This document shows, in pieces, positions 10,401-58,797 of a stretch of 64,000 nucleotides of DNA; position 1 is the stretch's first letter; every line of letters starts with the position of its first letter. Both the position numbers and the translations under genes were made by a program. The notes below the pieces were generated by a model, which was not told the DNA's origin, made no database searches, and worked only from the letters and a program-made list of their open reading frames with translations. The stretch spans positions 6,496 to 70,495 of the forward strand of contig CALRGR010000003.1 of assembly GCA_943357985.1 (NCBI GenBank). Direction: 5' to 3'. The DNA is from Candidatus Levybacteria bacterium GW2011_GWA1_37_16 (GTDB taxonomy: Bacteria > Patescibacteriota > Microgenomatia > Levybacterales > UBA12049).

Positions 10401-10717
10401 GATCAATTATTACGCATGAGATAGATTTTGTTGAGGAAGAGACAGAAGGCAAGAAAGTGACAATTGGAGGAATTATTGAAGCAACAAGAAGAATATTTAC
10501 AAAGAAAAACGGAAACGAAATGGCATTTGTAACGATTGGCAATGAAAAGGGAATTGTAATTGAGTGTGTTGTTTTTCCAAAAATATTTTCGGAATATAAA
10601 CACCTCTTAAATATGGACACAGTCGTAATAATTGAAGGGAAAATAGACATAAACAATGATAAATCCGTAATAATTGTGGAAAAAATTTCTCCAGTAAAAG
10701 CCTTTAATCTGACCTAA
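7490..10717 (+). CDS. dnaE: DNA polymerase III alpha subunit
   Basis: N-terminal PHP domain (HLHNHSEYSLLDG), polymerase core motifs, and a length of 1075 aa. Confidence 0.9.
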   Translation: MTDFVHLHNHSEYSLLDGLSKIKAMVQRAKELDMKALAITDHGNMYGTIVFFKACKEAGIKPIIGCEIYISKRAKENKEAGIDSDSNHLILLAKDMKGYKNLMKIVSEAQLDGYYYKPRTDESLLEKYHEGLICLSACVNGYVSEPLIEGKEDEAIRRAKKLSEIFGEGNFYLELQKHLNVKKQDPLNEKLVEMSKKLGIPLVATNDNHYVYSSDAQAQEILLCIQTQTTIDTPNRRLSMIDSPDFYMKSKEEMTGLFLQTPEALENTSKIADMCNLELTLGKWTMPKFAVPDGKTSSEYIKELVDKGLVERYGQITPTIRERADYELSIILNKGYETYILIVADFVNWAKDRGITVGPGRGSAAGAIVCYSLRITDVDPLYFKLPFERFLNPDRPSAPDIDLDFADNRRDEVIDYVTKKYGRDKVAQIITFGTMEARGSVRDAGRALGMPYSVPDRISKMIPPGWQGHAMTLETALEQSSDLKMAYDGEPETKRLLDLAMKLEGVSRHASVHAAGVVIADKDITEYTPLQREPNGEKIITQYDMYSIGEDGVGLLKMDFLGLRNLTIIQETLRFIKENKDETVDFSTLGFEDVKTYSLLASGETTGIFQLESPGMRRYIKDLKPTTIFDVMAMVALYRPGPMQNIPEFVKRKHNPAFIDFPDERLKDILSQSYGILTFQDDVMLISIAIAGYSWLDADKFRKAMGKKIPSEMKKQHDIFVKGAIKNGLTEKKAEEMFNLIAPFAGYGFNKAHAACYATIAFRTGYLKAHYSVEFMTALLTAESRGSTGPTKNEKLAQAVAECKRLNVSVLPPDINKSRSDFTIEENSKIRFGLSAIKNVGGAAIQTILEGGQRGPFKSFEDFCLRVNLSTVNKKTIESLIKAGAMDQFGNRASLLITAPEIIDNVQKKKKQEQEGQSTLFGDSGQSHEIKKNTQDDIKDFSTDEKLSFEKEFLGFYLTSHPFMNELLSIRSIITHEIDFVEEETEGKKVTIGGIIEATRRIFTKKNGNEMAFVTIGNEKGIVIECVVFPKIFSEYKHLLNMDTVVIIEGKIDINNDKSVIIVEKISPVKAFNLT

Positions 10718-26699: not shown

Positions 26700-27785
26700 C
26701 TACCTAATTTCCAACACTTTATTATCTTTTCCCTCTTGAGTGTCAATAGCGGATAAAAATCCGAGAAGAATAAAACTTGACAACAGAGAACTGCCTCCAT
26801 AAGAAAGAAAAGGCAGCGTTACTCCTACAATAGGCAAAACGCCAACATTCATCCCAACATTTATAAAAAACTGGACTAGTAATATAAAAAAAGCAGTTAT
26901 GGAAAACACCCTAGGAAAAGTATCGCTGCACCTCGTAAATACTACGAATATTTTATATAAAAGCACTGCAAAAATTATAAGAATTAGAAGTGCTCCCACA
27001 AAGCCTAATTCTTCTGCGGTTGTAGCAAAAATAAAATCAGTATGTCTTTCCGGAAGAAATCTAAGAGCAGATTGAGTTCCTTGCCCTAATCCTTGTCCGA
27101 AAAACATTCCGGACCCAACAGCAATAACGGACTGAATTGCGTTATAAGAAGTACCTAGCGGGTCTGATGTTGGATTAATAAAAGTTAAAAGTCTTTGCTT
27201 TTGATATTCATGCAAAAACCTCCAGACAACTGGTGAAAGCATAAAAAAAAATGCAAGTCCACCCAAAAAATATTTAAAAGGAAAACCAAAAATTACCAGG
27301 GAGAGAATTACTACAAATCCATAAATAAGAGCACTTCCTAAATCCGGCTGAACAAATATAAGAAATGCCAAAGGCAGTAAATACAAGAACACCATAAGAA
27401 AAGTTTTAAATGATTGACTTTTGTGCTCTGAAAGATATGAAGCAAAAGAAATAGCCAAAAATGGCTTCATAAATTCTGAGAATTGAATTCTTAAGCCAAA
27501 AAATTCAAACCATCTTACCGCACCTCTGCTTTCTATCCCAATAAAAAGAAGAATCAAGAGAATAACAATTGAAGCAATATAGATGGGAGTAGAATATAAT
27601 TTTAAAATTTTATAATTAACATTTGAACAGATTAAAAATACAACAAGAGATACAAAAGCAAAAATTAATTGGCGCCAAAAAAGAACAGAACTCACAGAAA
27701 AAATAACCGTGAGGCTTAGTACTAAAAGCGCAAGTGCAGGAACCAAAAGTGAAAAATTTATATGGGACAGAATTCCTCTATTCAT
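26700..27785 (-). CDS. SEDS-family peptidoglycan glycosyltransferase (FtsW/RodA/SpoVE)
   Basis: Ten TM helices, the conserved SEDS loop and the C-terminal PFLSYGGSS motif. Confidence 0.75.
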   Translation of the reverse strand: MNRGILSHINFSLLVPALALLVLSLTVIFSVSSVLFWRQLIFAFVSLVVFLICSNVNYKILKLYSTPIYIASIVILLILLFIGIESRGAVRWFEFFGLRIQFSEFMKPFLAISFASYLSEHKSQSFKTFLMVFLYLLPLAFLIFVQPDLGSALIYGFVVILSLVIFGFPFKYFLGGLAFFFMLSPVVWRFLHEYQKQRLLTFINPTSDPLGTSYNAIQSVIAVGSGMFFGQGLGQGTQSALRFLPERHTDFIFATTAEELGFVGALLILIIFAVLLYKIFVVFTRCSDTFPRVFSITAFFILLVQFFINVGMNVGVLPIVGVTLPFLSYGGSSLLSSFILLGFLSAIDTQEGKDNKVLEIR

Positions 27786-48588: not shown

Positions 48589-49982
48589 ATTTTATAAATA
48601 TCTCCAGCACCCATTGTTACAACAATAGTACCCTTATCGTATCCCTTTTTAGATAGATATTCTATCACATTGGCAAGCGTAGGCAAAAATACAACATCCC
48701 CATGAACTTTAGCCACTTCGGAAGCCAGAAGCGCAGATGAAACAGTTAGGTCAGCCTCTTCTCTAAGCGAAGCGTATATATTTGTTAGTATAATAGTATT
48801 TGCGTCCGCAAATGAGGTTTTAAACTGTTCGAACAATGATTTTGTTCTAGAATACGTATGCGGCTGAAAAATACAGACAATTCTCTGTTTTGGAAATGTT
48901 TTTTTGAACGCTCTGAGAGTTTTTTTAATTTCTGTTGGATGATGTGCATAATCATCAAAAGCCATTGCGCCGCTTGGTAATTTCCCCACAAACTCAAATC
49001 TTCTTTTGCTTCCGCTATATTTTGAGATACCCAACTTTATTTTTTCTATTGATATCCCAAGCTCGGCAGCTACGACAATGGCAGCTAACGCATTTACAGC
49101 ATTGTGTTCTCCCGGCACGCCAACAGAAAATTCCCCAAAATTCATTTCTCTTCCATTTACCCAAAAGAATGTTTTCTCGCCTGAAATACTAATTCTCTCA
49201 AGATGAAAATCATTCTTTGAAGAAAGACCGAATGTAACAACTCTGCCTTTGTATTCTTTTAGAAAAATTGACACTTGCTCATCGTCTCCATTTGCTATTA
49301 AGACTCCGTTTGAAGGCAAACTGTTTGCAAATTTAGCAAAAACCCCCCTCATATCATCTATTGCAGAGTAAACATCCGGATGATCAAACTCTATATTTGT
49401 AAAAACTGCAATTCTTGGATGCTGCCATAAAAACTTTACAGTTTTATCATATTTTGGATCTGTTATATACTCATCTGCTTCTGCCACAAAATATTTTCCA
49501 CGACCAAAATGCCCCGAGCTACCCAAGGATGGAATATTTCCTGTTCCAATAACATATGTTGGATCAAGTCCTACTTCTTTTATAATTGTTGCAATCATAG
49601 CCGTTGTAGTGGTCTTACCATGCGCACCTGCAACAGATATGCCTTCGAATCGCTTGTCGATAACCGAGCCTTCCATAAATGCGCCGACTGCTTCTCCCTG
49701 CATTAATACCTTAATTCCATTTGAAAGCGCAGCTTTTACCTCAACGTTATCTCTCCCACCGTGTGCTCCACTTGCAATAACCAAATCAACATCTGCAACA
49801 TGCTCACTATCAAAACCTTCAAACACGGCTATATCTGCTTTTTTTAAACCCTCATCTGTTATAAACTCTTCGGCAATGTCGGAACCGGTTACCTTAATTC
49901 CAGCTTCCTTAGCAATAATCGCAAGAGGTGCAGTTCCAACTCCTTTTATTCCAACAAAATGTATTGATTTTATTTTCTTCAT
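48570..49982 (-). CDS. murC: UDP-N-acetylmuramate--L-alanine ligase
   Basis: N-terminal IHFVGIKGVGTAPLAIIAKEAG (MurC-type Rossmann) and the P-loop GAHGKTTTTAM. Confidence 0.85.
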   Translation of the reverse strand: MKKIKSIHFVGIKGVGTAPLAIIAKEAGIKVTGSDIAEEFITDEGLKKADIAVFEGFDSEHVADVDLVIASGAHGGRDNVEVKAALSNGIKVLMQGEAVGAFMEGSVIDKRFEGISVAGAHGKTTTTAMIATIIKEVGLDPTYVIGTGNIPSLGSSGHFGRGKYFVAEADEYITDPKYDKTVKFLWQHPRIAVFTNIEFDHPDVYSAIDDMRGVFAKFANSLPSNGVLIANGDDEQVSIFLKEYKGRVVTFGLSSKNDFHLERISISGEKTFFWVNGREMNFGEFSVGVPGEHNAVNALAAIVVAAELGISIEKIKLGISKYSGSKRRFEFVGKLPSGAMAFDDYAHHPTEIKKTLRAFKKTFPKQRIVCIFQPHTYSRTKSLFEQFKTSFADANTIILTNIYASLREEADLTVSSALLASEVAKVHGDVVFLPTLANVIEYLSKKGYDKGTIVVTMGAGDIYKIWTNLL

Positions 49983-51175
49983 AACTTCTTAAGGGCTTTT
50001 GCTACTGCTTCATATTCATCCCATGGTTCTTCTCCATTGCCTAAATTCATTGATTTTTCATGACTTTTTCCCGTTAGGATAACCAAATCTCCCTTTCTTG
50101 CTATTCTAATAGCCTCATCAATTGCTTTCTGTCTGTCAGAAATTTTAATAAGAGTTTTGTTCTTGATTCTCTTGTCTTTATTTCTAATTCCCTTTTCTAT
50201 ATCATCCGCAATTTTATCTACGCTTTCTCCGCGGGGATCTTCACTTGTCAAAATAATAACATCTGAAAATCTGTCTGAAGCATCCCCCATAAGAGGTCTT
50301 TTTGTACTGTCTCTTTTTCCTGCGCTTCCAAAAACATGAATAATCCTTCCATTAGTCTCTTTTCTTGCCAATTTCAAGAGTTTCTCAAAAGAGTTAGGAG
50401 TGTGCGCAAAATCAATCATAACTCTAAATGGACCTTCAAAAACTATTTCTTGCCTTCCTTTTGGAAGTTTAAAACTCTCAACTGCTTCTTCGATATTTTC
50501 CTTAGAAATTCCCAGAACAGTACAGACAGAAGCTGCTGCCAATATGTTATAATTATTAAATTGTCCGAAAACATTCTTTTCAAAAGAAAAATCCTTTATT
50601 GAAAAATCAGCATCTTTTGAAATCCCATAAGTCAGAAATCTGGAGGAAGCTTTATCTTTTGAAATTATCTTAAAAGAATCATCATCAATGTTTGTTATGG
50701 ATATTTTTGCTTTTTTTAAAAGTTTAAGCTTTGTTGAAACATAATTTTCATAAGTTTTGTGGTAGTCCAAATGCTCATTTGTAACATTTGTTAAAACTGC
50801 GCCTTCAAAATTTATTCCCCATACTCTATGCTGATCTAAAGCATGAGACGTTACTTCCAAAACTACGTATTTTTTGCGCTTCTCTTTAAGATTTGAAATT
50901 CTTTTAAAAAGTTTTTGAATTGTCCACTCGGATGGAGTTGTTACATGAAGACCTATGTCTTCATAAAGCCCTTCAACAGATGCTCCCACCGTTGAAATCA
51001 TTGAGGAATTTAATCCCGCCTTGGTTAGGATGTGATGAATTAGGTTTACAGTAGTTGTTTTACCGTCTGTACCGGTCACTCCAACAACTATCAAATCTTT
51101 GGAAGGGAAACCGTACCAAATATTAGCAACTATTGCGCTAAGCAAATGATAAATATTTTTAATTTCTTGAAGCAT
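49979..51175 (-). CDS. murE: Mur ligase, MurE-like (UDP-MurNAc-L-Ala-D-Glu--diamino acid ligase), lacking the typical N-terminal domain
   Basis: P-loop VGVTGTDGKTTT, motifs HVTTPS and DYHKTYENYVSTK, at about 400 aa. Confidence 0.6.
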   Translation of the reverse strand: MLQEIKNIYHLLSAIVANIWYGFPSKDLIVVGVTGTDGKTTTVNLIHHILTKAGLNSSMISTVGASVEGLYEDIGLHVTTPSEWTIQKLFKRISNLKEKRKKYVVLEVTSHALDQHRVWGINFEGAVLTNVTNEHLDYHKTYENYVSTKLKLLKKAKISITNIDDDSFKIISKDKASSRFLTYGISKDADFSIKDFSFEKNVFGQFNNYNILAAASVCTVLGISKENIEEAVESFKLPKGRQEIVFEGPFRVMIDFAHTPNSFEKLLKLARKETNGRIIHVFGSAGKRDSTKRPLMGDASDRFSDVIILTSEDPRGESVDKIADDIEKGIRNKDKRIKNKTLIKISDRQKAIDEAIRIARKGDLVILTGKSHEKSMNLGNGEEPWDEYEAVAKALKKL

Positions 51176-52497
51176 TATAAAGTTTCCTCTCTTTTTTTGT
51201 CCCAAAATTGCCCACGCCTGCAAAGTTTTGCTTTATCAGCTGAATTTTTCAAAAGCATCTCGGTAACACGCTCTAAGAATAGTGTATTTTGCGAACTCTT
51301 AATAAGAACTACATCTCCTTCTTGTATATTATCAAGGATAAAGTCCCGTCCTTGCGAAAAAGTTTTAAAGCTTAAGTTTTCAAGTCCATTTTTTTTAAGA
51401 ACAGGAGCCACATACTGTTGCATCATTGGACCAACTAAAATTACAAGATCGCAGGTTTTAAGAATTTTATCAGCAACTGTCTTGTGAATTTTCTCCGAAA
51501 TCATACCAAGCTCCCTCATGTCTCCCAAAATTGCTACCTTGCGTCTTTTTCCTGAAACTTTTTTAAGCAAATCTAAAATATCCAGTATTGGCGGTAAAGT
51601 CGCGTTATTATAAGAAGAGTCAATAATCGTTGTGTTTTTTATACCATAAAACACGGAAAGTCTGCCCGGAGGAAGCTTGAAATTTCGTTCAAGCGAGACA
51701 ATTGCATCATTTATAGAAACTCCAAGATATAAAGCAATTGATATTGCGGACATAAATGAACGGGCATAATGATCAGAAAGAGGTCTATCGAGCTTTAACT
51801 TAAAACTTTCTCCAAGATGATTTACATTAAAGCTGAACTTGTTAAGAGTTACTTCAAGATTATCCGCATAAAAGTCTGCGTTCTCTTTTTCAATCGATAT
51901 TGTTGATTTTCTAGCCATAACCGTGGCTGATTCTTTCTCAATTAATTCATCATCAATATTCACAACAGCAAATCCGTCTCCAGGAAGAGATTTTAGAAGA
52001 AGCATTTCCTGCTCCATAGTCTTTTTTAGAATTTCATCTTCCGTTTTTGCTTTATTTTCAAAATAAACGCTATGCTCAAAAGAAATGTTTGTGAGAGTTG
52101 CTATCTGGGGTTTTACAATTTTTAGTAAATAACTCATGTTTTTAGGCTCATCCGGACCGTCAATTCCCATTTCACAAATATAAACGTCATATTGCTTCCA
52201 GTTTATAAAAATACCTAAAAATGAGGTTAGAATAATACGAATCCAGTCTAAAATTGTGTAATTTCCCGGATTTATATCCAAAATATCCAAAGGGATGCCT
52301 GTTTCGCTGTTTTTGCCCTGACCTTGTTTCACTTTATACTTTGAAGTAAGAGTTGCGGCCACAATTGAAGATAAAGAGCTTTTTCCGCTTGCACCTCCAA
52401 TACCCACAACAATAGGTCTTATTTTTATAAGCTGAACTTTTGCAATCATACGCAGATACCAAAGCACAAAAGAGACAACAAACTTTCTCAAAACCAT
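51175..52497 (-). CDS. murF: Mur ligase family protein, MurF-like by position; atypical P-loop GIGGASGKSS
   Basis: Mur-ligase central domain blocks (ICEMGIDGP, TLTNISFEH) and a position after murE in the dcw order. Confidence 0.45.
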   Translation of the reverse strand: MVLRKFVVSFVLWYLRMIAKVQLIKIRPIVVGIGGASGKSSLSSIVAATLTSKYKVKQGQGKNSETGIPLDILDINPGNYTILDWIRIILTSFLGIFINWKQYDVYICEMGIDGPDEPKNMSYLLKIVKPQIATLTNISFEHSVYFENKAKTEDEILKKTMEQEMLLLKSLPGDGFAVVNIDDELIEKESATVMARKSTISIEKENADFYADNLEVTLNKFSFNVNHLGESFKLKLDRPLSDHYARSFMSAISIALYLGVSINDAIVSLERNFKLPPGRLSVFYGIKNTTIIDSSYNNATLPPILDILDLLKKVSGKRRKVAILGDMRELGMISEKIHKTVADKILKTCDLVILVGPMMQQYVAPVLKKNGLENLSFKTFSQGRDFILDNIQEGDVVLIKSSQNTLFLERVTEMLLKNSADKAKLCRRGQFWDKKREETL

Positions 52498-52574: not shown

Positions 52575-53618
52575 ATGAGCCCGCTTGATGAAAATCAACT
52601 TCAGATTGAGATTAAAAAAGAGGGACTGCGCCATATTACGGATGAAATACCCGGCTTTATGAGGCAAAAACTTGGTATAAACTTCACTTATTATGACGAG
52701 GATCTCAAAAGAATAAAAGATAAAGTCGTAATTAGCCGGATTGAGAGCTTAGCAATTCCGCCAGCCTGGAAAAAAGTCTGGATTTGTGCTTCAGAAAACG
52801 GATATCTTCAAGCAACAGGCACTGATGACAAAAGACGTAAACAGTATATTTATCATCCGGAATGGGTAAAAGCAACTCAAACAAGCAAATTTGAAAGACT
52901 GACGGATTTTGGCCTCAGCCTTCCAATAATCCGCTCGAAAATCGATTATGACCTGCACCAAAAAGACATGGATAAGAAAAGAATCCTAGCTACTGTCGTT
53001 TGGTTGCTTGAGAAAACTTTTATCCGCATTGGAAATGAAGAATACGCAAGAAATAATGAAAGCTTCGGGCTAACAACTTTAAGAAACCGTCACGCAAAAG
53101 TAAGAGGAGACCAAATTTCATTTAAATTCATAGGGAAAAGCGGTATTGAGAATGTAATCGAAATATCAAACCCAACAATTGCCAAAACAATCAGAAAATG
53201 TATTGAACTTCCGGGCTACGAGCTTTTTCAATTTATAGATGATAGCGGAGAGCGTCATGTAATTGATTCTGCGGATGTTAACGAATTTTTGAAAGAAATA
53301 ACTAAAAATGAATTTACTACAAAAGATTTTAGAACTTGGGGAGCAACCAATTTATCAGCAAGACACCTTTATAAATTAGGAGGCGCGGAGAGTGAGAAGA
53401 CGATCAAGCAAAATATTATGGACACCATCAAGGAAGTCGCAAGTCAGCTTAACAATACCGTATCGGTTTGTAGAAATTATTACATTCATCCGCAAGTTTT
53501 GAAGAGCTACGTCAAAAAGACTCTAGTTCCCCACTTTGCAGGTTTTGAAAAATCCAGAAAATCAATAAAAGGACTCTCCTGGAACGAAACCGCCCTAATC
53601 AAACTCCTACAAAATTAG
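52575..53618 (+). CDS. Type IB DNA topoisomerase (bacterial/poxvirus-type TopIB)
   Basis: Conserved blocks GLTTLRNRH, KDFRTWGAT and the catalytic Tyr context SVCRNYYIHP. Confidence 0.8.
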   Translation: MSPLDENQLQIEIKKEGLRHITDEIPGFMRQKLGINFTYYDEDLKRIKDKVVISRIESLAIPPAWKKVWICASENGYLQATGTDDKRRKQYIYHPEWVKATQTSKFERLTDFGLSLPIIRSKIDYDLHQKDMDKKRILATVVWLLEKTFIRIGNEEYARNNESFGLTTLRNRHAKVRGDQISFKFIGKSGIENVIEISNPTIAKTIRKCIELPGYELFQFIDDSGERHVIDSADVNEFLKEITKNEFTTKDFRTWGATNLSARHLYKLGGAESEKTIKQNIMDTIKEVASQLNNTVSVCRNYYIHPQVLKSYVKKTLVPHFAGFEKSRKSIKGLSWNETALIKLLQN

Positions 53619-53642: not shown

Positions 53643-54344
53643 ATGGGAACAATGAGAGATTTTAATAGAGGCGGTAACTCGAGACCAAGACGAAGCTATG
53701 ATAATAGAGGATCTTCTGGTGGAAACGAAGAAAGACAAACATTTAAAGCAATATGCGCAGATTGTGGCCGCGACTGTGACCTTCCATTTGAACCCCGTGG
53801 CAACAGACCAGTATATTGCAGAGATTGTTTCAAAAAGCATACACCGGAAGGCTCAAGCGGAGATAGATATGAATCAAGAGGAGATTCCAGAGGGGGTCCA
53901 CGTGAAGATTCAAGGCGATCAGGTGGCGATAGACCAATGTTTAGCGCAGTATGCGACAACTGCGGCAAAACTTGCCAGCTTCCCTTTGAACCAAGACAGG
54001 GAAAAGAAGTTTTCTGCAGTAGATGTTTTGAAGATAAAGAAAAAGGAATAGACATGACGCAAAGAAAAAGCAATAGCAATGGCACGCAAGCACAATCACA
54101 ACCAAACCTTCAAATGGACGCAATAAATGCAAAGCTTGATAAAATATTAAATCTTTTATCCAACACAAAAGCATTAAAAAATGACGAGAAAGCTTCCAAA
54201 GTAGTAGAAGATGAGATAGAACAACTAGTAAAAACAATTAAAGCTGAAAAATCAATCAAACCTAAAAAGAAAGTCAAAGATCCTGAGCAAAGCCGAAGCG
54301 TAGCAGCAGAAACAGAAATTCCAATAGAATCCCCAACGGAATAG
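53643..54344 (+). CDS. RGG/Arg-Gly-rich protein with two repeated CxxC...CxxC zinc-ribbon modules and a lysine-rich C-terminal coiled coil
   Basis: Duplicated module: CADCGRDCDLPFEPRGNRPVYCRDCF and CDNCGKTCQLPFEPRQGKEVFCSRCF. The region is locally GC-rich because of GGN/CGN codons, which produces many spurious overlapping ORFs on both strands. Confidence 0.5.
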   Translation: MGTMRDFNRGGNSRPRRSYDNRGSSGGNEERQTFKAICADCGRDCDLPFEPRGNRPVYCRDCFKKHTPEGSSGDRYESRGDSRGGPREDSRRSGGDRPMFSAVCDNCGKTCQLPFEPRQGKEVFCSRCFEDKEKGIDMTQRKSNSNGTQAQSQPNLQMDAINAKLDKILNLLSNTKALKNDEKASKVVEDEIEQLVKTIKAEKSIKPKKKVKDPEQSRSVAAETEIPIESPTE

Positions 54345-54475
54345 TTATCCTTTTTTATTCTTTTTTAATTTTCCCTGAAGATCATTAAAAAGTTCTTGAG
54401 AAATTTCCCTGGGCGTTAATTTCTTATCTCTAAGGTTTTTAGGGCTGAGAAGTCTTGAAGGTTTTTTCATCGAGA

Positions 54476-54592
54476 TTTAAAAAGGAATATCGGAAGTAGA
54501 ATTTGGGTCCACCTCAAAGGTTTTTCTGTATATGCAAAGCCTGCAATCTTCATAAAGATAAGCAAAGTCGGAAGGTGATAGCTTGTACATAT
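54476..54592 (-). pseudogene. Internally deleted remnant of a paralogue of the Cas4-like nuclease (N-terminal 15 aa fused to C-terminal 22 aa)
   Basis: Translates to MYKLSPSDFAYLYEDCRLCIYRKTFEVDPNSTSDIPF*. Compare the intact gene at 41032-41730: ...QYKLSPSDFKYLWEDCKFC... and ...ETCRLCIYRKSFESIESTTSDIPF*. The DNA is also similar (tgcaggctttgcat...). Confidence 0.6.
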
Positions 54593-54721: not shown

Positions 54722-54907
54722 TTATTTCTTGCTAGAATTTTCCACAACTCCAATCTCTCCTAGCGTGAGGTTGTAGAGTTTATAAACCATTTTATCAAGC
54801 TCTGCCTTTAGATCATCATAAACCTCGGGAAGCTTTTTCATTAACTCTAAAGAATCACCTAGATAGAGAGCGAAGTTTTTATCATCATTGAGGAAATAGG
54901 TCTTCAT
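54722..54907 (-). pseudogene. Probable in-frame deletion remnant of an amino-DNA methyltransferase / RM-associated gene (61 aa)
   Basis: N-terminal NFALYLGDSLELMKKLPE resembles the N-terminus of beta-class N6/N4 MTases that normally precedes the S/DPPY motif. It is immediately followed by LDKMVYKLYNLTLGEIGVVE, which resembles the C-terminal ends of RM enzymes. The catalytic core is absent. Confidence 0.4.
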
Positions 54908-54975
54908 TTGTATTAAAATTATACTTCTTTTCCTTACAATTTACTATTCCACTAATATTGACACCTTTTGATCTA

Positions 54976-55005
54976 TTGACAAGAGTGTGTATTGAGTTAT
55001 ATAAT
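54976..55005 (+). promoter_or_regulatory. Consensus sigma70-type promoter (TTGACA-18-TATAAT)
   Basis: TTGACA at 54976-54981, TATAAT at 55000-55005, with a second TTGACA at 54958-54963. Confidence 0.5.
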
Positions 55006-55011
55006 GCTTTT

Positions 55012-55091
55012 TACCTCTAATACGCAAGTGTTAGGGATAGAAAATCTAGCAATAGATTTTCGGCAAAGGGACCCCGCAAGGGGTTTTTTTG
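55012..55091 (+). ncRNA. Candidate small RNA (~80 nt) of unknown family with two GCAA-tetraloop hairpins
   Basis: Lies downstream of the consensus promoter. Internal 9-bp hairpin GAAAATCTA-GCAA-TAGATTTTC. It ends in an intrinsic terminator. There is no plausible CDS; the listed 78-aa ORF 54992-55228 runs across the terminator. Confidence 0.35.
55069..55091 (+). terminator. Rho-independent terminator (GGACCCC-GCAA-GGGGT followed by T7)
   Basis: GC stem with a GNRA loop and a run of seven T's. It may also serve the convergent ftsI gene weakly from the other strand. Confidence 0.55.
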
Positions 55092-55287
55092 TGCCTACTT
55101 TTCTGTCCTTTCGTTCCGGCGAAAGAACGAAAGCCTCTCTTGCCAGTGAAGCCGGACTATTTTTACTCCGCTCGCTGATCGGGTTATTTCACCCCCTCCA
55201 TCGACAGGTTTGCGAGGAATCCCCCTGATAGCTCGCTACATAAAAAAATTAACGTCCTAATGCTTCAAGGCAAGAATAAGAAGAATA

Positions 55288-56970
55288 TTATTCCGTGGGG
55301 GGAATTCCGTAATACGTCAATATGTCTTTGGCGATGGAGAAAAAGACCGGGGCGGCAGTGTCTGCACCGTATATGCTAGTCGTGGGCCTATCAATAATTA
55401 CAAGCATGACGAACTTTGGATTGTCCGCGGGAGCAAAACCAATAAAAGAAGCGATTGTTTGGTTTGGGTCATAATGTCCCGCAACCGGAATTGACGCTGT
55501 TCCTGTTTTACCTGCAATTCTATAACCTTTTAGCCTTGCCCACTGCGCCTCTCCCTTATTTACGGCATTTACCATAATCTCCGTCATTATTTTTGAAGTT
55601 TTTTCCGAAATTGTTCTTGTGACTACTTTTGACGGAATTTTTACTTTGTCCCCTTCTGCTGTATGAATTTGCGCCACAATGTGCGGTTCCATCCTAAGCC
55701 CTCCATTTGCAATTGAACCTATAGCGGCAAGAAGCTGTATGGGAGTAATTGAGATTCCCTGACCAAAACTTACCGTTGCCAAATCTACTTCATACCAATT
55801 ATCTTTTTCCTTAATTGGCTGTGCCACTTCTCCCTGCAAATCAATCCCCGTTGTTTGCCCTATGCCAAATTTTTCTAAATGCGATAGCATGCGATTTAGT
55901 CCGAGTTTCTTCCCAACAAAAACCATTCCTGTATTATCCGAATGAATTATTGTATCAATCATACTAATATTGGGCTTATACTTATCATTCCAGGTTTTGA
56001 TGGTATATCCGCCTATTGAAACAGGTTTATCACAGATATTACATTTAGTCTCTGGCGTTACCAAACCTTCATCCAAGGCAGCTGACATAATAAGAGGCTT
56101 AAAAGTAGAACCCGGTTCATAAGCATCATTAATGAATGGATTTCTATACTCTTTTTCGGAATAGTCCTGGAACTTTTGCGGATCAAAAGATGGAGTTGCT
56201 ACCATTGCAAGAATTTGCCCTGTTGCTGGATCCATAACTGCAACCATTCCCCCGCTTGCGCCGTAAGTATCAATTGCTTTTTTCAACTTGTTCTCTGCCG
56301 CATACTGAATAGCTCTGTCTATTGATAAGACAAGACTATCTCCATCAATTGTTTTTTCATCCCCGCTATTTAGTTTTGCAACTATTGGTCTTCCTAATGC
56401 ATCCTGAATAACGCTTGCAAGCCCTTCCTTGCCTCTCAAAAGCCTGTCGTAATGCCCTTCAAGCCCAAAATAACCAGTATCTACATCCGCATCATTCTTA
56501 CCCACAAAACCCAAAAGATGGGCCGCAGTTGATGCTTCCGAATAAAGCCTTGTGTAGTTTTCTTCAAACCCAATACCGGGGAGTTTTAATTGCTCAATTT
56601 GCTGTTTTGTTGCAAGGCCTACCTTTGGTGGAAGTGCCACCCAAAATTTATCCAGATTTAAAAGCGCGGATACAGAAGCCTCCTCAGTTTTTAGAATCGG
56701 AGCCAAAACCAAAGCTGTTAATTTTTTATCCTTAACCACTTTTGGGTTTGCAAAAACAGTATAGATAAGTCTATTGGCAACTATAGGAAATCCGTCTGAT
56801 GTATAGATTTGGCCACGCGCCGGCTGAAGTTTTATTATTCTTCCGTATTGATTTTCCCCAAGAAGAGAAAGCTCCGATGCTTTAACAACCTGCCAGTAAA
56901 AAAGACGGGAAATAACGACAAAGAAAAGAAAAATTAGAAAACAAAAGGTAAACCTGTAACGCCAGGTCAT
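55288..56970 (-). CDS. ftsI: Penicillin-binding protein 2 / FtsI (class B transpeptidase)
   Basis: N-terminal TM helix, a PBP dimerisation domain, and the SxxK (STFK), SxN (SDN) and KTG (KTGT) motifs. Confidence 0.9.
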   Translation of the reverse strand: MTWRYRFTFCFLIFLFFVVISRLFYWQVVKASELSLLGENQYGRIIKLQPARGQIYTSDGFPIVANRLIYTVFANPKVVKDKKLTALVLAPILKTEEASVSALLNLDKFWVALPPKVGLATKQQIEQLKLPGIGFEENYTRLYSEASTAAHLLGFVGKNDADVDTGYFGLEGHYDRLLRGKEGLASVIQDALGRPIVAKLNSGDEKTIDGDSLVLSIDRAIQYAAENKLKKAIDTYGASGGMVAVMDPATGQILAMVATPSFDPQKFQDYSEKEYRNPFINDAYEPGSTFKPLIMSAALDEGLVTPETKCNICDKPVSIGGYTIKTWNDKYKPNISMIDTIIHSDNTGMVFVGKKLGLNRMLSHLEKFGIGQTTGIDLQGEVAQPIKEKDNWYEVDLATVSFGQGISITPIQLLAAIGSIANGGLRMEPHIVAQIHTAEGDKVKIPSKVVTRTISEKTSKIMTEIMVNAVNKGEAQWARLKGYRIAGKTGTASIPVAGHYDPNQTIASFIGFAPADNPKFVMLVIIDRPTTSIYGADTAAPVFFSIAKDILTYYGIPPTE

Positions 56971-57272
56971 TGTTTTATAACCTGCCTCGCGTCAAGGCGG
57001 GCAACAGAGATTGACGTGCTTATAACAAAGTTAGTCTTGTTTGGAGCAAATCCCAATTCCCCTGCGTTTGAGGCAATTTTAGTAAAAGAGGACAAGGTTA
57101 AAAGTTTTTCCTGCAAAATTAAGTTTTCTTTTTTTAGAAGGCTTACATTTTCTTCTGTATTTTGGAGCGCAATTCCTGAAACTGAAATTCTATTTGAAAC
57201 GCTTATTCTTACCACTGATAAAACAAGTATAACAAATATTAGCGTTGATATTATTAAGGCAGGCTTATGCAT
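56967..57272 (-). CDS. ftsL: FtsL-like cell division protein (septum formation initiator)
   Basis: 101 aa with an N-terminal TM helix, then a short coiled coil (LLKKENLILQEKLLTL). It sits between rsmH and ftsI. Confidence 0.6.
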   Translation of the reverse strand: MHKPALIISTLIFVILVLSVVRISVSNRISVSGIALQNTEENVSLLKKENLILQEKLLTLSSFTKIASNAGELGFAPNKTNFVISTSISVARLDARQVIKQ

Positions 57273-57300: not shown

Positions 57301-58203
57301 TTACGATTTTTCAAATACTCTGAGTTTTGCAGCGCTACTTCTTCTGTTAGTATCAATTTCTACTTGATCTGCAATAACCGGATGCTTAGTAATAATCGAG
57401 CCTAGTCCTTTGTCTTCAAAGTCAATGAATTTCCATTTAACAATTCTGTCTTCCAGTGAGTGGAAACTTATAACAGCAAGTCTTCCTCTCGGACTTAATA
57501 TCTCAAGCGCGGAAGGCAAAACCGCTCTTAAGTTATTAAGCTCGTCATTTACCGCAATTCTTAGTGCTTGAAATACTTTTGTGTTAACTTTTGCTTTCAT
57601 AAAAGGTTTTACCTCACCCCTTAACCCGAAGCTCTCTGCGACTATATCTGCAAGTTGTGCAGTAGTCTCAATCGGCTTTACTCCACGGGCGCTAATAATA
57701 TTTTTAGAAATGGTGCGAGCATTGTGCTCCTCACCCAATTTAGTAAATAATTCATATAATTCTCCACTATTTAATACGTTTATTAGATCTGCCGCCTTAA
57801 CAGCACCGTCCTTATCCATTCTCATATCCAGAGGACCATCCTGCTGAAAACTAAAGCCTCTCTCCGGCTTGTTTACTTGATAGCTAGACACTCCCAAATC
57901 AAACAAAACTCCCGAAACTTCCACGAAACCGTTTTTACGCCCGATCTCTTTAATGTCTTTGAAATTTCCCTTAGCCAAAATTATGTCTTTTCCGAGCTCA
58001 AACTCGGTACCTTTGATCTGAGATTTAACCTGATTCAGCGCTTCCTGATCTAAGTCTATTCCTAAGACTTTTCCGCCCCGCTTTAGAATTTCAAAGGTAT
58101 GTCCGCCTCCGCCTAAAGTTGCATCTATATAGAGCTTTTTAGGCTCTATATTTAGACTATCTATAGCTTCTTGTAAAAGTACACTTACATGAAAATCGCT
58201 CAT
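57301..58203 (-). CDS. rsmH: 16S rRNA (cytosine1402-N4)-methyltransferase
   Basis: N-terminus MSDFHVSVLLQEAIDSL...DATLGGGGH. Confidence 0.9.
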   Translation of the reverse strand: MSDFHVSVLLQEAIDSLNIEPKKLYIDATLGGGGHTFEILKRGGKVLGIDLDQEALNQVKSQIKGTEFELGKDIILAKGNFKDIKEIGRKNGFVEVSGVLFDLGVSSYQVNKPERGFSFQQDGPLDMRMDKDGAVKAADLINVLNSGELYELFTKLGEEHNARTISKNIISARGVKPIETTAQLADIVAESFGLRGEVKPFMKAKVNTKVFQALRIAVNDELNNLRAVLPSALEILSPRGRLAVISFHSLEDRIVKWKFIDFEDKGLGSIITKHPVIADQVEIDTNRRSSAAKLRVFEKS

Positions 58204-58656: not shown

Positions 58657-58696
58657 CACTTTAGACCACTTTAGACCATTTTGAACCGTTTTGAAG
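58657..58696 (-). promoter_or_regulatory. Putative MraZ operator: four 10-bp-periodic direct repeats ending in AAAGTG/AAAATG/AAAACG upstream of mraZ
   Basis: Coding-strand sequence CTTCAAAACG-GTTCAAAATG-GTCTAAAGTG-GTCTAAAGTG-GGATG lies 20 nt upstream of the mraZ ATG. The AAAGTGG repeat resembles MraZ boxes described in Firmicutes and Mollicutes. Confidence 0.5.
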
Positions 58697-58797
58697 TACG
58701 TGTCAATAGGGAAAAAGAGCAAAATAGTAGACCATAGCGGACTAAAACACAAGATATGGGGAAGACTATTGACTATTTACGATTGACGATTTACGAC

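Follow-up and report, generated by a model that had tools for sequence, protein, structure and literature searches.

The window, the whole 64,000-nucleotide stretch of DNA analysed here, includes a cell-division cluster with rsmH, ftsL, ftsI, murE and a gene for a second Mur ligase (Table 1). The closest matches to its ftsI gene are all from MAGs of Candidatus Levyibacteriota (CPR/Patescibacteria), and the Logan assembly of SRR8561390 holds a locus identical to that of the window; relatives are represented in JGI 3300027835, GCA_039738515, GCA_039738535 and GCA_040900155. An insert of ~2.8 kb separates ftsI from murE in the window; in ~35 other Levyibacteriota loci, the gap from ftsI to murE is 0-55 nt. 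The murE-side part of the insert encodes a bacterial type IB topoisomerase, the sole recombinase-like gene product of the island, and a zinc-ribbon protein rich in arginine and glycine. A gene for this topoisomerase is also present at loci L001, L084, L086 and L090 of related genomes, and an ftsI-murE island that carries it was found only in the subclade whose FtsI shares 77% identity or more with that of the window. In the closest relative (L083, FtsI 87% identical), the island is absent and a convergent zinc-ribbon gene lies 25 nt past ftsI. The content of the island differs from genome to genome, and includes Fic with MazE, Mrr, an Eco57I-like type IIG enzyme, an N4/N6 methyltransferase with a nuclease, PD-(D/E)XK nucleases and several proteins without known function.

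The remainder of the insert in the window consists of two gene remnants, a candidate small RNA (sRNA) gene and a GC-rich segment. In the 61-aa chimeric remnant, the methyltransferase N-terminus was recognised with an E-value of 1e-13 (against L002) and the type IIG C-terminus with an E-value of 2e-5 (against L062), while the PD-(D/E)XK remnant was recovered using a 223-aa PDDEXK_1 protein of L086 as the query (E = 8e-9 and 4e-8). Both remnants are internally deleted, each retaining just the N- and C-terminal ends of the protein. A very basic ORF of 40-44 aa (MKKPIDKPRKKNLRDKK...), which is not annotated, adjoins the zinc-ribbon gene of the window (54345-54470, minus strand) and recurs in relatives at L089 9360-9494, L090 9396-9518 and L002 ~10477-10596 (51-59% identity by tblastx). 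Elsewhere in the window, the region upstream of mraZ (58660-58690 on the minus strand, and 58768-58796) contains GTGG(G/T) direct repeats AAAGTGGTCTAAAGTGGG and a 14-nt tandem repeat ATTGACGATTTACG, and is probably the MraZ operator region.

Table 1. Location of features in the window and of related features at the ftsI loci of relatives (L numbers).
Feature	Location	Strand	Remarks
Second Mur ligase	49979-51223	-	Cell-division cluster
murE	51175-52497	-	Cell-division cluster
Type IB topoisomerase	52575-53618	+	ftsI-murE insert, murE-side end
Zinc-ribbon protein	53643-54344	+	ftsI-murE insert
PD-(D/E)XK nuclease relic	~54480-54590	-	N- and C-terminal pieces alone left; tblastn
61-aa chimeric relic	54722-54907	-	In-frame fusion of N4/N6 DNA methyltransferase N-terminus and type IIG C-terminus
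Divergent -10-like box AGTATAAT	54918-54923	-	10 nt before ATG of the neighbour gene
Decayed ftsI-end-like motif ACTATTCCACT	54943-54953	+	Just upstream of the sRNA promoter
Extended -35 CTATTGACA	54973-54981	+	Begins at 54973
sRNA promoter	54976-55005	+	-35 TTGACA 54976-54981, 18-nt spacer, -10 TATAAT 55000-55005
Predicted sRNA transcript, ~80 nt	55013-55092	+	Start A55013 inferred from distance to -10; 3' end in U-tract
Hairpin 1	55015-55036	+	9 bp, CUCUAAUAC / GUGUUAGGG, GCAA loop
Hairpin 2	55040-55061	+	9 bp, GAAAAUCUA / UAGAUUUUC, GCAA loop
Hairpin 3, intrinsic terminator	55063-55092	+	CCCC-GCAA-GGGG core, 7-U tract
GC-rich repeated element	55103-55243	+	First hairpin 55108-55133; motifs CACCCCCTCC and TCCCCCTGA
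ftsI 3' end GGAATTCCCCCCACGGAATA	55289-55308	-	Encodes ..GIPPTE-stop; recurs as displaced copies in relatives
ftsI	55288-56970	-	Cell-division cluster
ftsL	56967-57272	-	Cell-division cluster
rsmH	57301-58203	-	Cell-division cluster
sRNA homologue, L062	4985-5069		FtsI 82% identical
sRNA homologue, L086 and L087	4282-4367 in L086		FtsI 80% identical
sRNA homologue, L090	8985-9069		FtsI 77% identical
sRNA homologue, L089	8951-9033		FtsI 78% identical
ftsI-end copy, L062	4285-4304
ftsI-end copies, L090	7701-7720, 8470-8489
ftsI-end copies, L089	8150-8169, 8919-8938
ftsI-end copy, L002	8685-8704
ftsI-end copy, L001	5136-5155
ftsI-end copy, L084	3707-3726

The promoter assigned to the sRNA matches the TTGACA-18-TATAAT consensus with a score of 12/12, and is the sole such site in the 64-kb window (0.08 expected), with a site of this score present in 8 of 100 shuffles of the window. 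Across 93 fetched loci (~1.1 Mb), there are five instances of this pattern, of which four belong to the sRNA element described here. This agrees with the first-pass annotation, in which the promoter had been called textbook and unusually good for the genome. The -35 box forms part of an extended motif, CTATTGACA, found three times in the window (0.44 expected); the other two copies are on the minus strand at 58701-58709 and 26741-26749. All three are at promoter-like positions, belonging to the sRNA, mraZ and rplU, and CTATTGACA may represent an extended -35 or UP-proximal motif specific to the lineage. As this motif is common to the three, the sRNA appears to use the apparent strong housekeeping promoter type of the organism, and its -10 box is better than that of either the mraZ or the rplU promoter.

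The predicted transcript is composed of three consecutive GCAA-capped hairpins and has nearly no single-stranded sequence, with just ~2-5 unpaired nucleotides at any hairpin junction. Its minimum free energy (MFE) is -37.7 kcal/mol (z = -7.55), the corresponding structure represents 58% of the ensemble, and none of 200 shuffled sequences folded equally well. Given the G-U pairs and the energy gap to the opposite strand (-21.5 kcal/mol), the plus strand is the one that folds. The perfect 9-bp hairpin with a GCAA tetraloop reported previously is present (hairpin 2), but a second 9-bp GCAA hairpin located just upstream (hairpin 1) had been missed. An intrinsic terminator had likewise been recognised correctly, though the description 'strong' was somewhat generous, since its G+C core is limited to CCCC/GGGG, the rest of the stem being A-U and G-U pairs formed with the U-tract. 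The stem lies between an A-run and a T-run.

Homologues of the sRNA were sought using BLAST and the covariance model R1, with its rebuilt version R2, in 79 ftsI loci of GTDB genomes, and in a further 10 loci fetched via close FtsI homologues. The unit was found downstream of ftsI in four other Candidatus Levyibacteriota genomes, with FtsI 77-82% identical to that of the window and R2 scores for the sRNA homologues of 93-106 bits. It was not found in the fetched DNA of L001, L002, L084, L088, L091 and L093, or in any of ~75 more distant Levyibacteriota ftsI loci searched with R1 and R2 across ~6 kb on each side of ftsI, and the two models revealed no diverged copies past the five in ~1.06 Mb of Levyibacteriota ftsI loci. 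The distribution is therefore patchy, the unit being present in five of ~11 close relatives, and for this reason the proposal that it might be a housekeeping sRNA is not upheld.

In all five homologues the -35 box with its extension CTATTGACA and the ATAAT of the -10 box are invariant and are spaced by 17-18 nt, while the spacer sequence diverges. Each of the five sequences folds separately to the same three-hairpin MFE structure (z from -5.9 to -8.3). In the alignment of the five sequences, 154 of 154 base-pair cells are paired, as compared with 40-58% when the partners are slid by 1-3 columns. Thirteen pairs are altered on one side and three on both sides (C-G to U-A, U-A to C-G and A-U to U-A). 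Three changes on both sides were reached in 56 of 500 shuffles, and the covariation statistics are weak because they are drawn from just five sequences, all of a single narrow subclade. The nine pairs of hairpin 1 are 100% paired, and two of them are changed on both sides (C-G to U-A and U-A to C-G). Hairpin 2 is also 100% paired, with A-U replaced by U-A or U-G at pair 5 in three sequences, and its apical UCUAGCAAUAGA is invariant in all five. The loops stay within the GNRA class, being GCAA except for GAAA in hairpin 1 of L086 and L090 and GUAA in hairpin 3 of L089, and both the CCCC-GNRA-GGGG core of the terminator and the U7 tract are invariant. Hence, the check for covariation in homologous intergenic regions, proposed in the first-pass annotation, yielded structure-preserving substitutions in four other genomes, and a sense strand that folds far better than the antisense strand. 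Together, these comparisons show that selection acts on the structure of the predicted plus-strand RNA.

Between lineages, the transcripts are 79-97% identical, as compared with 73-76% for ftsI DNA. The sequences of the window and L062 differ at only 2 of 80 positions of the transcript but at 7 of 18 positions of the promoter spacer, and their near-identity is therefore attributed to constraint on the RNA rather than to recent transfer. Constraint on the primary sequence is not uniformly strong, as the sRNAs of L089 and L090 are 81% identical, below the 87% identity of their ftsI genes.

The only ORF across the sRNA (54992-55228, 78 aa) starts with a TTG that precedes the predicted transcription start, matches no Pfam family, and is not preserved in the homologues. 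No conserved start codon, ATG or other, and no conserved ORF were found on either strand in the five homologues, and a 1-nt indel in L086 breaks any reading frame on both strands. The absence of a credible ORF, noted previously, thus holds. A scan of the window, L062 and L086 against Rfam 15, applying gathering and E-value thresholds, produced no relevant match; the best local matches (12-24 bits) were far below threshold, so that no Rfam family covers the sRNA, and the only Rfam matches in the window were two tRNAs. BLAST against phages and plasmids and pattern scans of IMG/VR likewise gave no match to the sRNA. A search of the window for targets or anti-repeats found 9-13-mers at chance level only, no CRISPR-like array and no complementary target nearby, and no tandem repeat was found at the sRNA locus.

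An exact 20-mer scan of metagenomes gave two matches, located in an NRPS gene and in a gene of the MmeI family (L080 892-914). In the latter, 23 nt that encode QVLGIEN are identical to hairpin 1 and the adjoining junction of the sRNA. A relationship was rejected given that DNA similarity ends at 23 nt, Pfam detects no MmeI_N in the translated sRNA, and R1 has no match there. The match was judged to be due to chance, though it is an odd one given the restriction-gene neighbours of the sRNA.

The GC-rich segment downstream (G+C 0.49-0.52 versus ~0.36 around it) was confirmed to include a 9-bp stem, CTTTCGTTC/GAACGAAAG at 55108-55116 and 55125-55133. It had been grouped with the sRNA, but proved to be an independent repeated element, and the sRNA loci of L089 and L090 are without it. 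Four copies were identified by nhmmer, in the window, at L086 4143-4273, and at L062 4827-4973 and 480-667. Three of these (window, L086 and L062) directly follow the sRNA terminator. The solitary copy at L062 480-667 lies upstream of mraZ, where other genomes have no counterpart, and parts of it are 96% identical to the L086 copy. Both insertion contexts are positions after a hairpin and a T-run. The element is 140-190 nt long with motifs CACCCCCTCC and TCCCCCTGA conserved, and only its first hairpin is conserved, being kept with a changed sequence (CTTTCGTTC/GAACGAAAG in the window, TTCTTTT/AAAAGAA in L086 and TTCTCTTTG/CAAAGAGAA in L062). In the homologues, the fold of the whole element does not stand out (z -0.9 and -1.2, as compared with -3.5 in the window), and the consensus fold is weak on both strands. 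The element had no Rfam match, no relative at the protein level (tblastx) and no copies past the four. Inspection by eye for a tRNA T-arm, a group II intron domain V or a transposable element with terminal inverted repeats found none convincing. It is a small repeated non-coding element that is probably mobile.

A second recurring sequence derives from ftsI itself, of which the last 20-25 nt contain an internal direct repeat, ACGGAAT-N7-ACGGAAT. Displaced copies of this end are found downstream of ftsI, all in one orientation, in L002, L062, L089 and L090, with weaker copies in L001 and L084 (Table 1). When up to two mismatches were allowed across 84 loci, four copies were found, with none reverse-oriented downstream and one upstream. 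The genes between the copies differ, and L089 and L090 are unlike in gene order. The sRNA terminator of L089 is directly adjoined by a perfect copy. The ftsI-end-like motif that precedes the sRNA promoter has p ≤ 0.03 in L062, L086 and L089/L090, and is weak in the window (p 0.03-0.29); degenerate copies flank the sRNA in four of the five loci. Searching each genome for its own ftsI 3' end recovered few copies, and a degenerate motif was needed because the displaced copies resemble other ftsI alleles. L002 and L090 have a like arrangement, with L002 lacking the discrete ~150-nt sRNA block. No integrase was found among the flanking genes. As judged from the arrangement of these copies, the pattern suggests the trace of serial site-specific insertion at the ftsI 3' end, forming a cassette-like array in which the sRNA unit would be a small ORF-less cassette.

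The sRNA is the sole opposite-strand element in a co-directional run of ftsI, cassette genes, restriction gene and murE. The gene beside its promoter is the methyltransferase/type IIG relic in the window, an intact Eco57I-like type IIG gene in L062 and an Mrr nuclease gene in L086. This shows that the unit depends on no particular neighbour gene, and in the window it is intact although its neighbours are relics. The association with decayed nuclease and restriction-modification (RM) genes proposed in the first-pass annotation therefore stands as far as position is concerned, the gene remnants having been described correctly given the methyltransferase/IIG chimera and the PD-(D/E)XK ends. It does not extend to a functional link, as a specific partner gene is unlikely when the neighbours belong to three unrelated families. 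A -10-like box, AGTATAAT, is present on the strand opposite the sRNA in five of five loci, as read directly from the sequence and including L089 and L090. It precedes the start codon of the adjacent gene, whichever this is, by 6-10 nt in the window, L062 and L086, and at this distance the mRNA of the neighbour gene would be near-leaderless. Hence, AGTATAAT suggests a putative divergent promoter giving leaderless or near-leaderless mRNAs of island genes.

Promoter, hairpins and terminator thus recur as one unit in four other genomes, with structure-preserving substitutions and no conserved ORF, and the candidate sRNA is in all likelihood a real, independently transcribed and structured RNA gene of ~80 nt that represents a previously undescribed family. 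The first-pass interpretation is thereby partly upheld, as the RNA would be of a regulatory type and lies in a decayed defence island, but is neither an antitoxin nor a housekeeping RNA. The strong housekeeping-type promoter would fire at ~55013, and the RNA would fold into three consecutive GNRA-capped hairpins, with transcription stopping at the third, the terminator. The gene would be one small ORF-less unit in the variable island that separates ftsI from murE in a Candidatus Levyibacteriota subclade, and its product may be an abundant, stable structural RNA that acts in trans, recognised by a protein or another RNA through the hairpin tips. A stable trans-acting structural or protein-binding RNA is the most likely role, tentatively proposed at somewhat less than even chances, because scarce single strand, GNRA loops, invariant tips, covarying stems and changing neighbours point to it together. 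The same features speak against antisense regulation of an adjacent gene through seed pairing, and with ~2-5 unpaired nucleotides per junction and 4-nt GNRA loops, classical seed pairing or loop-loop kissing is unlikely. A selfish or purely local role would likewise be compatible with the patchy spread and island location of the sRNA. The explanation as a whole, a non-coding RNA gene of a new family whose product is a trans-acting structural RNA, is considered slightly more probable than all others combined.

The main rival to a trans-acting RNA is a local insulator acting in cis, in which the convergent promoter and a two-way hairpin terminator would keep dcw read-through out of the restriction genes by polymerase collision, termination or antisense pairing, with the divergent -10 box giving the next gene its own start. 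This is unlikely, though it would account for the orientation of the sRNA opposite to all flanking genes at five of five loci, for a terminator stem bordered by an A-run and a T-run, and for the conserved AGTATAAT so close to the start codon of the neighbour on the other strand. However, the compensatory changes and retained GNRA loops of hairpins 1 and 2 are unneeded for interference, and on the ftsI strand the G-U pairs turn into C-A mismatches and the tail past the stem is U-poor (CCCUUUGCC). Moreover, had site-specific insertion placed the unit, its orientation would go back to a single ancestral event, and the five loci could not count as independent evidence. A dedicated regulatory or antitoxin RNA of an adjacent RM or toxin gene, also put forward in the first-pass annotation, is very unlikely. 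The unit does always adjoin a restriction-type gene or relic (methyltransferase/IIG relic, Eco57I-like or Mrr), but because its neighbours come from unrelated families, conservation of a pairing site is precluded. The RNA does not overlap any gene, the locus has neither a toxin ORF nor tandem repeats, and the RNA remains intact where the RM genes have decayed, with L089 and L090 lacking an intact partner gene.

Alternatively, the unit may not be an RNA gene, but either hairpins that function at the DNA level, such as folded recombination sites like integron attC, or a relic promoter and terminator. The ftsI-end-like repeats that bracket the unit, and its presence in L090 and absence from L002 as a discrete ~150-nt block, are compatible with this, yet invariant and correctly spaced -35 and -10 boxes argue for transcription, the G-U (G-T) pairs favour one RNA strand, the U-tract is invariant, and no hairpin-site-specific recombinase was found, making this reading highly improbable. 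Least probable of those weighed is a leader or attenuator of a downstream gene since lost, or a small-protein gene. The layout of a promoter-proximal hairpin and terminator would suit the former and the 78-aa TTG ORF that spans the unit the latter, but no co-oriented gene is downstream at any of the five loci, where a convergent gene or the GC-rich element comes next, and the ORF has the shortcomings given above.

Compared with known systems, the unit shares with a generic trans-encoded sRNA gene the consensus promoter, a length of ~80 nt, the lack of an ORF, a hairpin and U-tract at the end, and compensatory changes that preserve the structure. It is unlike such genes in having almost no unpaired seed, in that all loops are 4-nt GNRA, in its CPR/Patescibacteria host, and in belonging to no Rfam family. 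The predicted sRNA would resemble RNA I of ColE1 and other plasmid antisense RNAs, which are small, strongly expressed three-stem-loop RNAs transcribed against their neighbours, but these have 6-7-nt kissing loops and a fixed overlapping target in place of the GNRA tetraloops seen here, for which there is no conserved target. The nut boxB of lambda and the put RNAs of HK022 are promoter-proximal hairpins that modify RNA polymerase, acting in cis into downstream genes. Stable GNRA-type hairpins directly after a strong promoter are common to these and the sRNA; in the latter, a terminator closes the unit and nothing co-oriented follows. Type I and type III toxin-antitoxin RNAs and RM antisense RNAs are likewise small RNAs in a neighbourhood of defence or mobile genes, but the sRNA has no toxin gene, repeats, restriction-gene overlap or conserved neighbours. 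Specifically, the locus lacks the tandem repeat and co-oriented downstream gene of a ToxI-like system, and the marks of a type I or cis-antisense system, namely gene overlap, a conserved antisense ORF (an indel disrupts the frame in L086) and constant neighbours, are all absent.

ORF-less integron gene cassettes with promoters or an sRNA are described, for example sRNA-Xcc1 of Xanthomonas (cited in PMC6557892; see also PMC11014356). The likeness to these consists of a short gene-less promoter and RNA unit in an array of exchangeable units parted by a recurring short sequence. Here, there is no IntI, attI or attC, the sequence that recurs consists of the final 20-25 nt of ftsI, and mobility is inferred; the flanking repeats are copies of the ftsI end, not attC-type imperfect palindromes, and the flanking genes include no integrase. 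A more far-reaching scheme, which we regard as decidedly doubtful, is that the sRNA is a mobile ORF-less cassette of an undescribed integrase-less array built in a subclade of CPR bacteria by repeated site-specific insertion into the last 20-25 nt of ftsI, with the sRNA or its divergent promoter pair acting as a module for the expression or insulation of newly arriving leaderless defence genes.

A literature search for sRNAs of the CPR or for restriction-linked sRNAs with GNRA hairpins found none applicable, and to our knowledge almost no small RNAs have been described in the Candidate Phyla Radiation (Patescibacteria), where genomes are very small. The locus provides a well-delimited, structure-supported candidate sRNA family with an unusual all-GNRA, near fully paired architecture, and a covariance model usable for searches. 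It also points to the 3' end of ftsI as a hot spot of repeated gene insertion followed by decay, inside an otherwise conserved cell-division cluster, and this hot spot could show how CPR organisms exchange defence genes.
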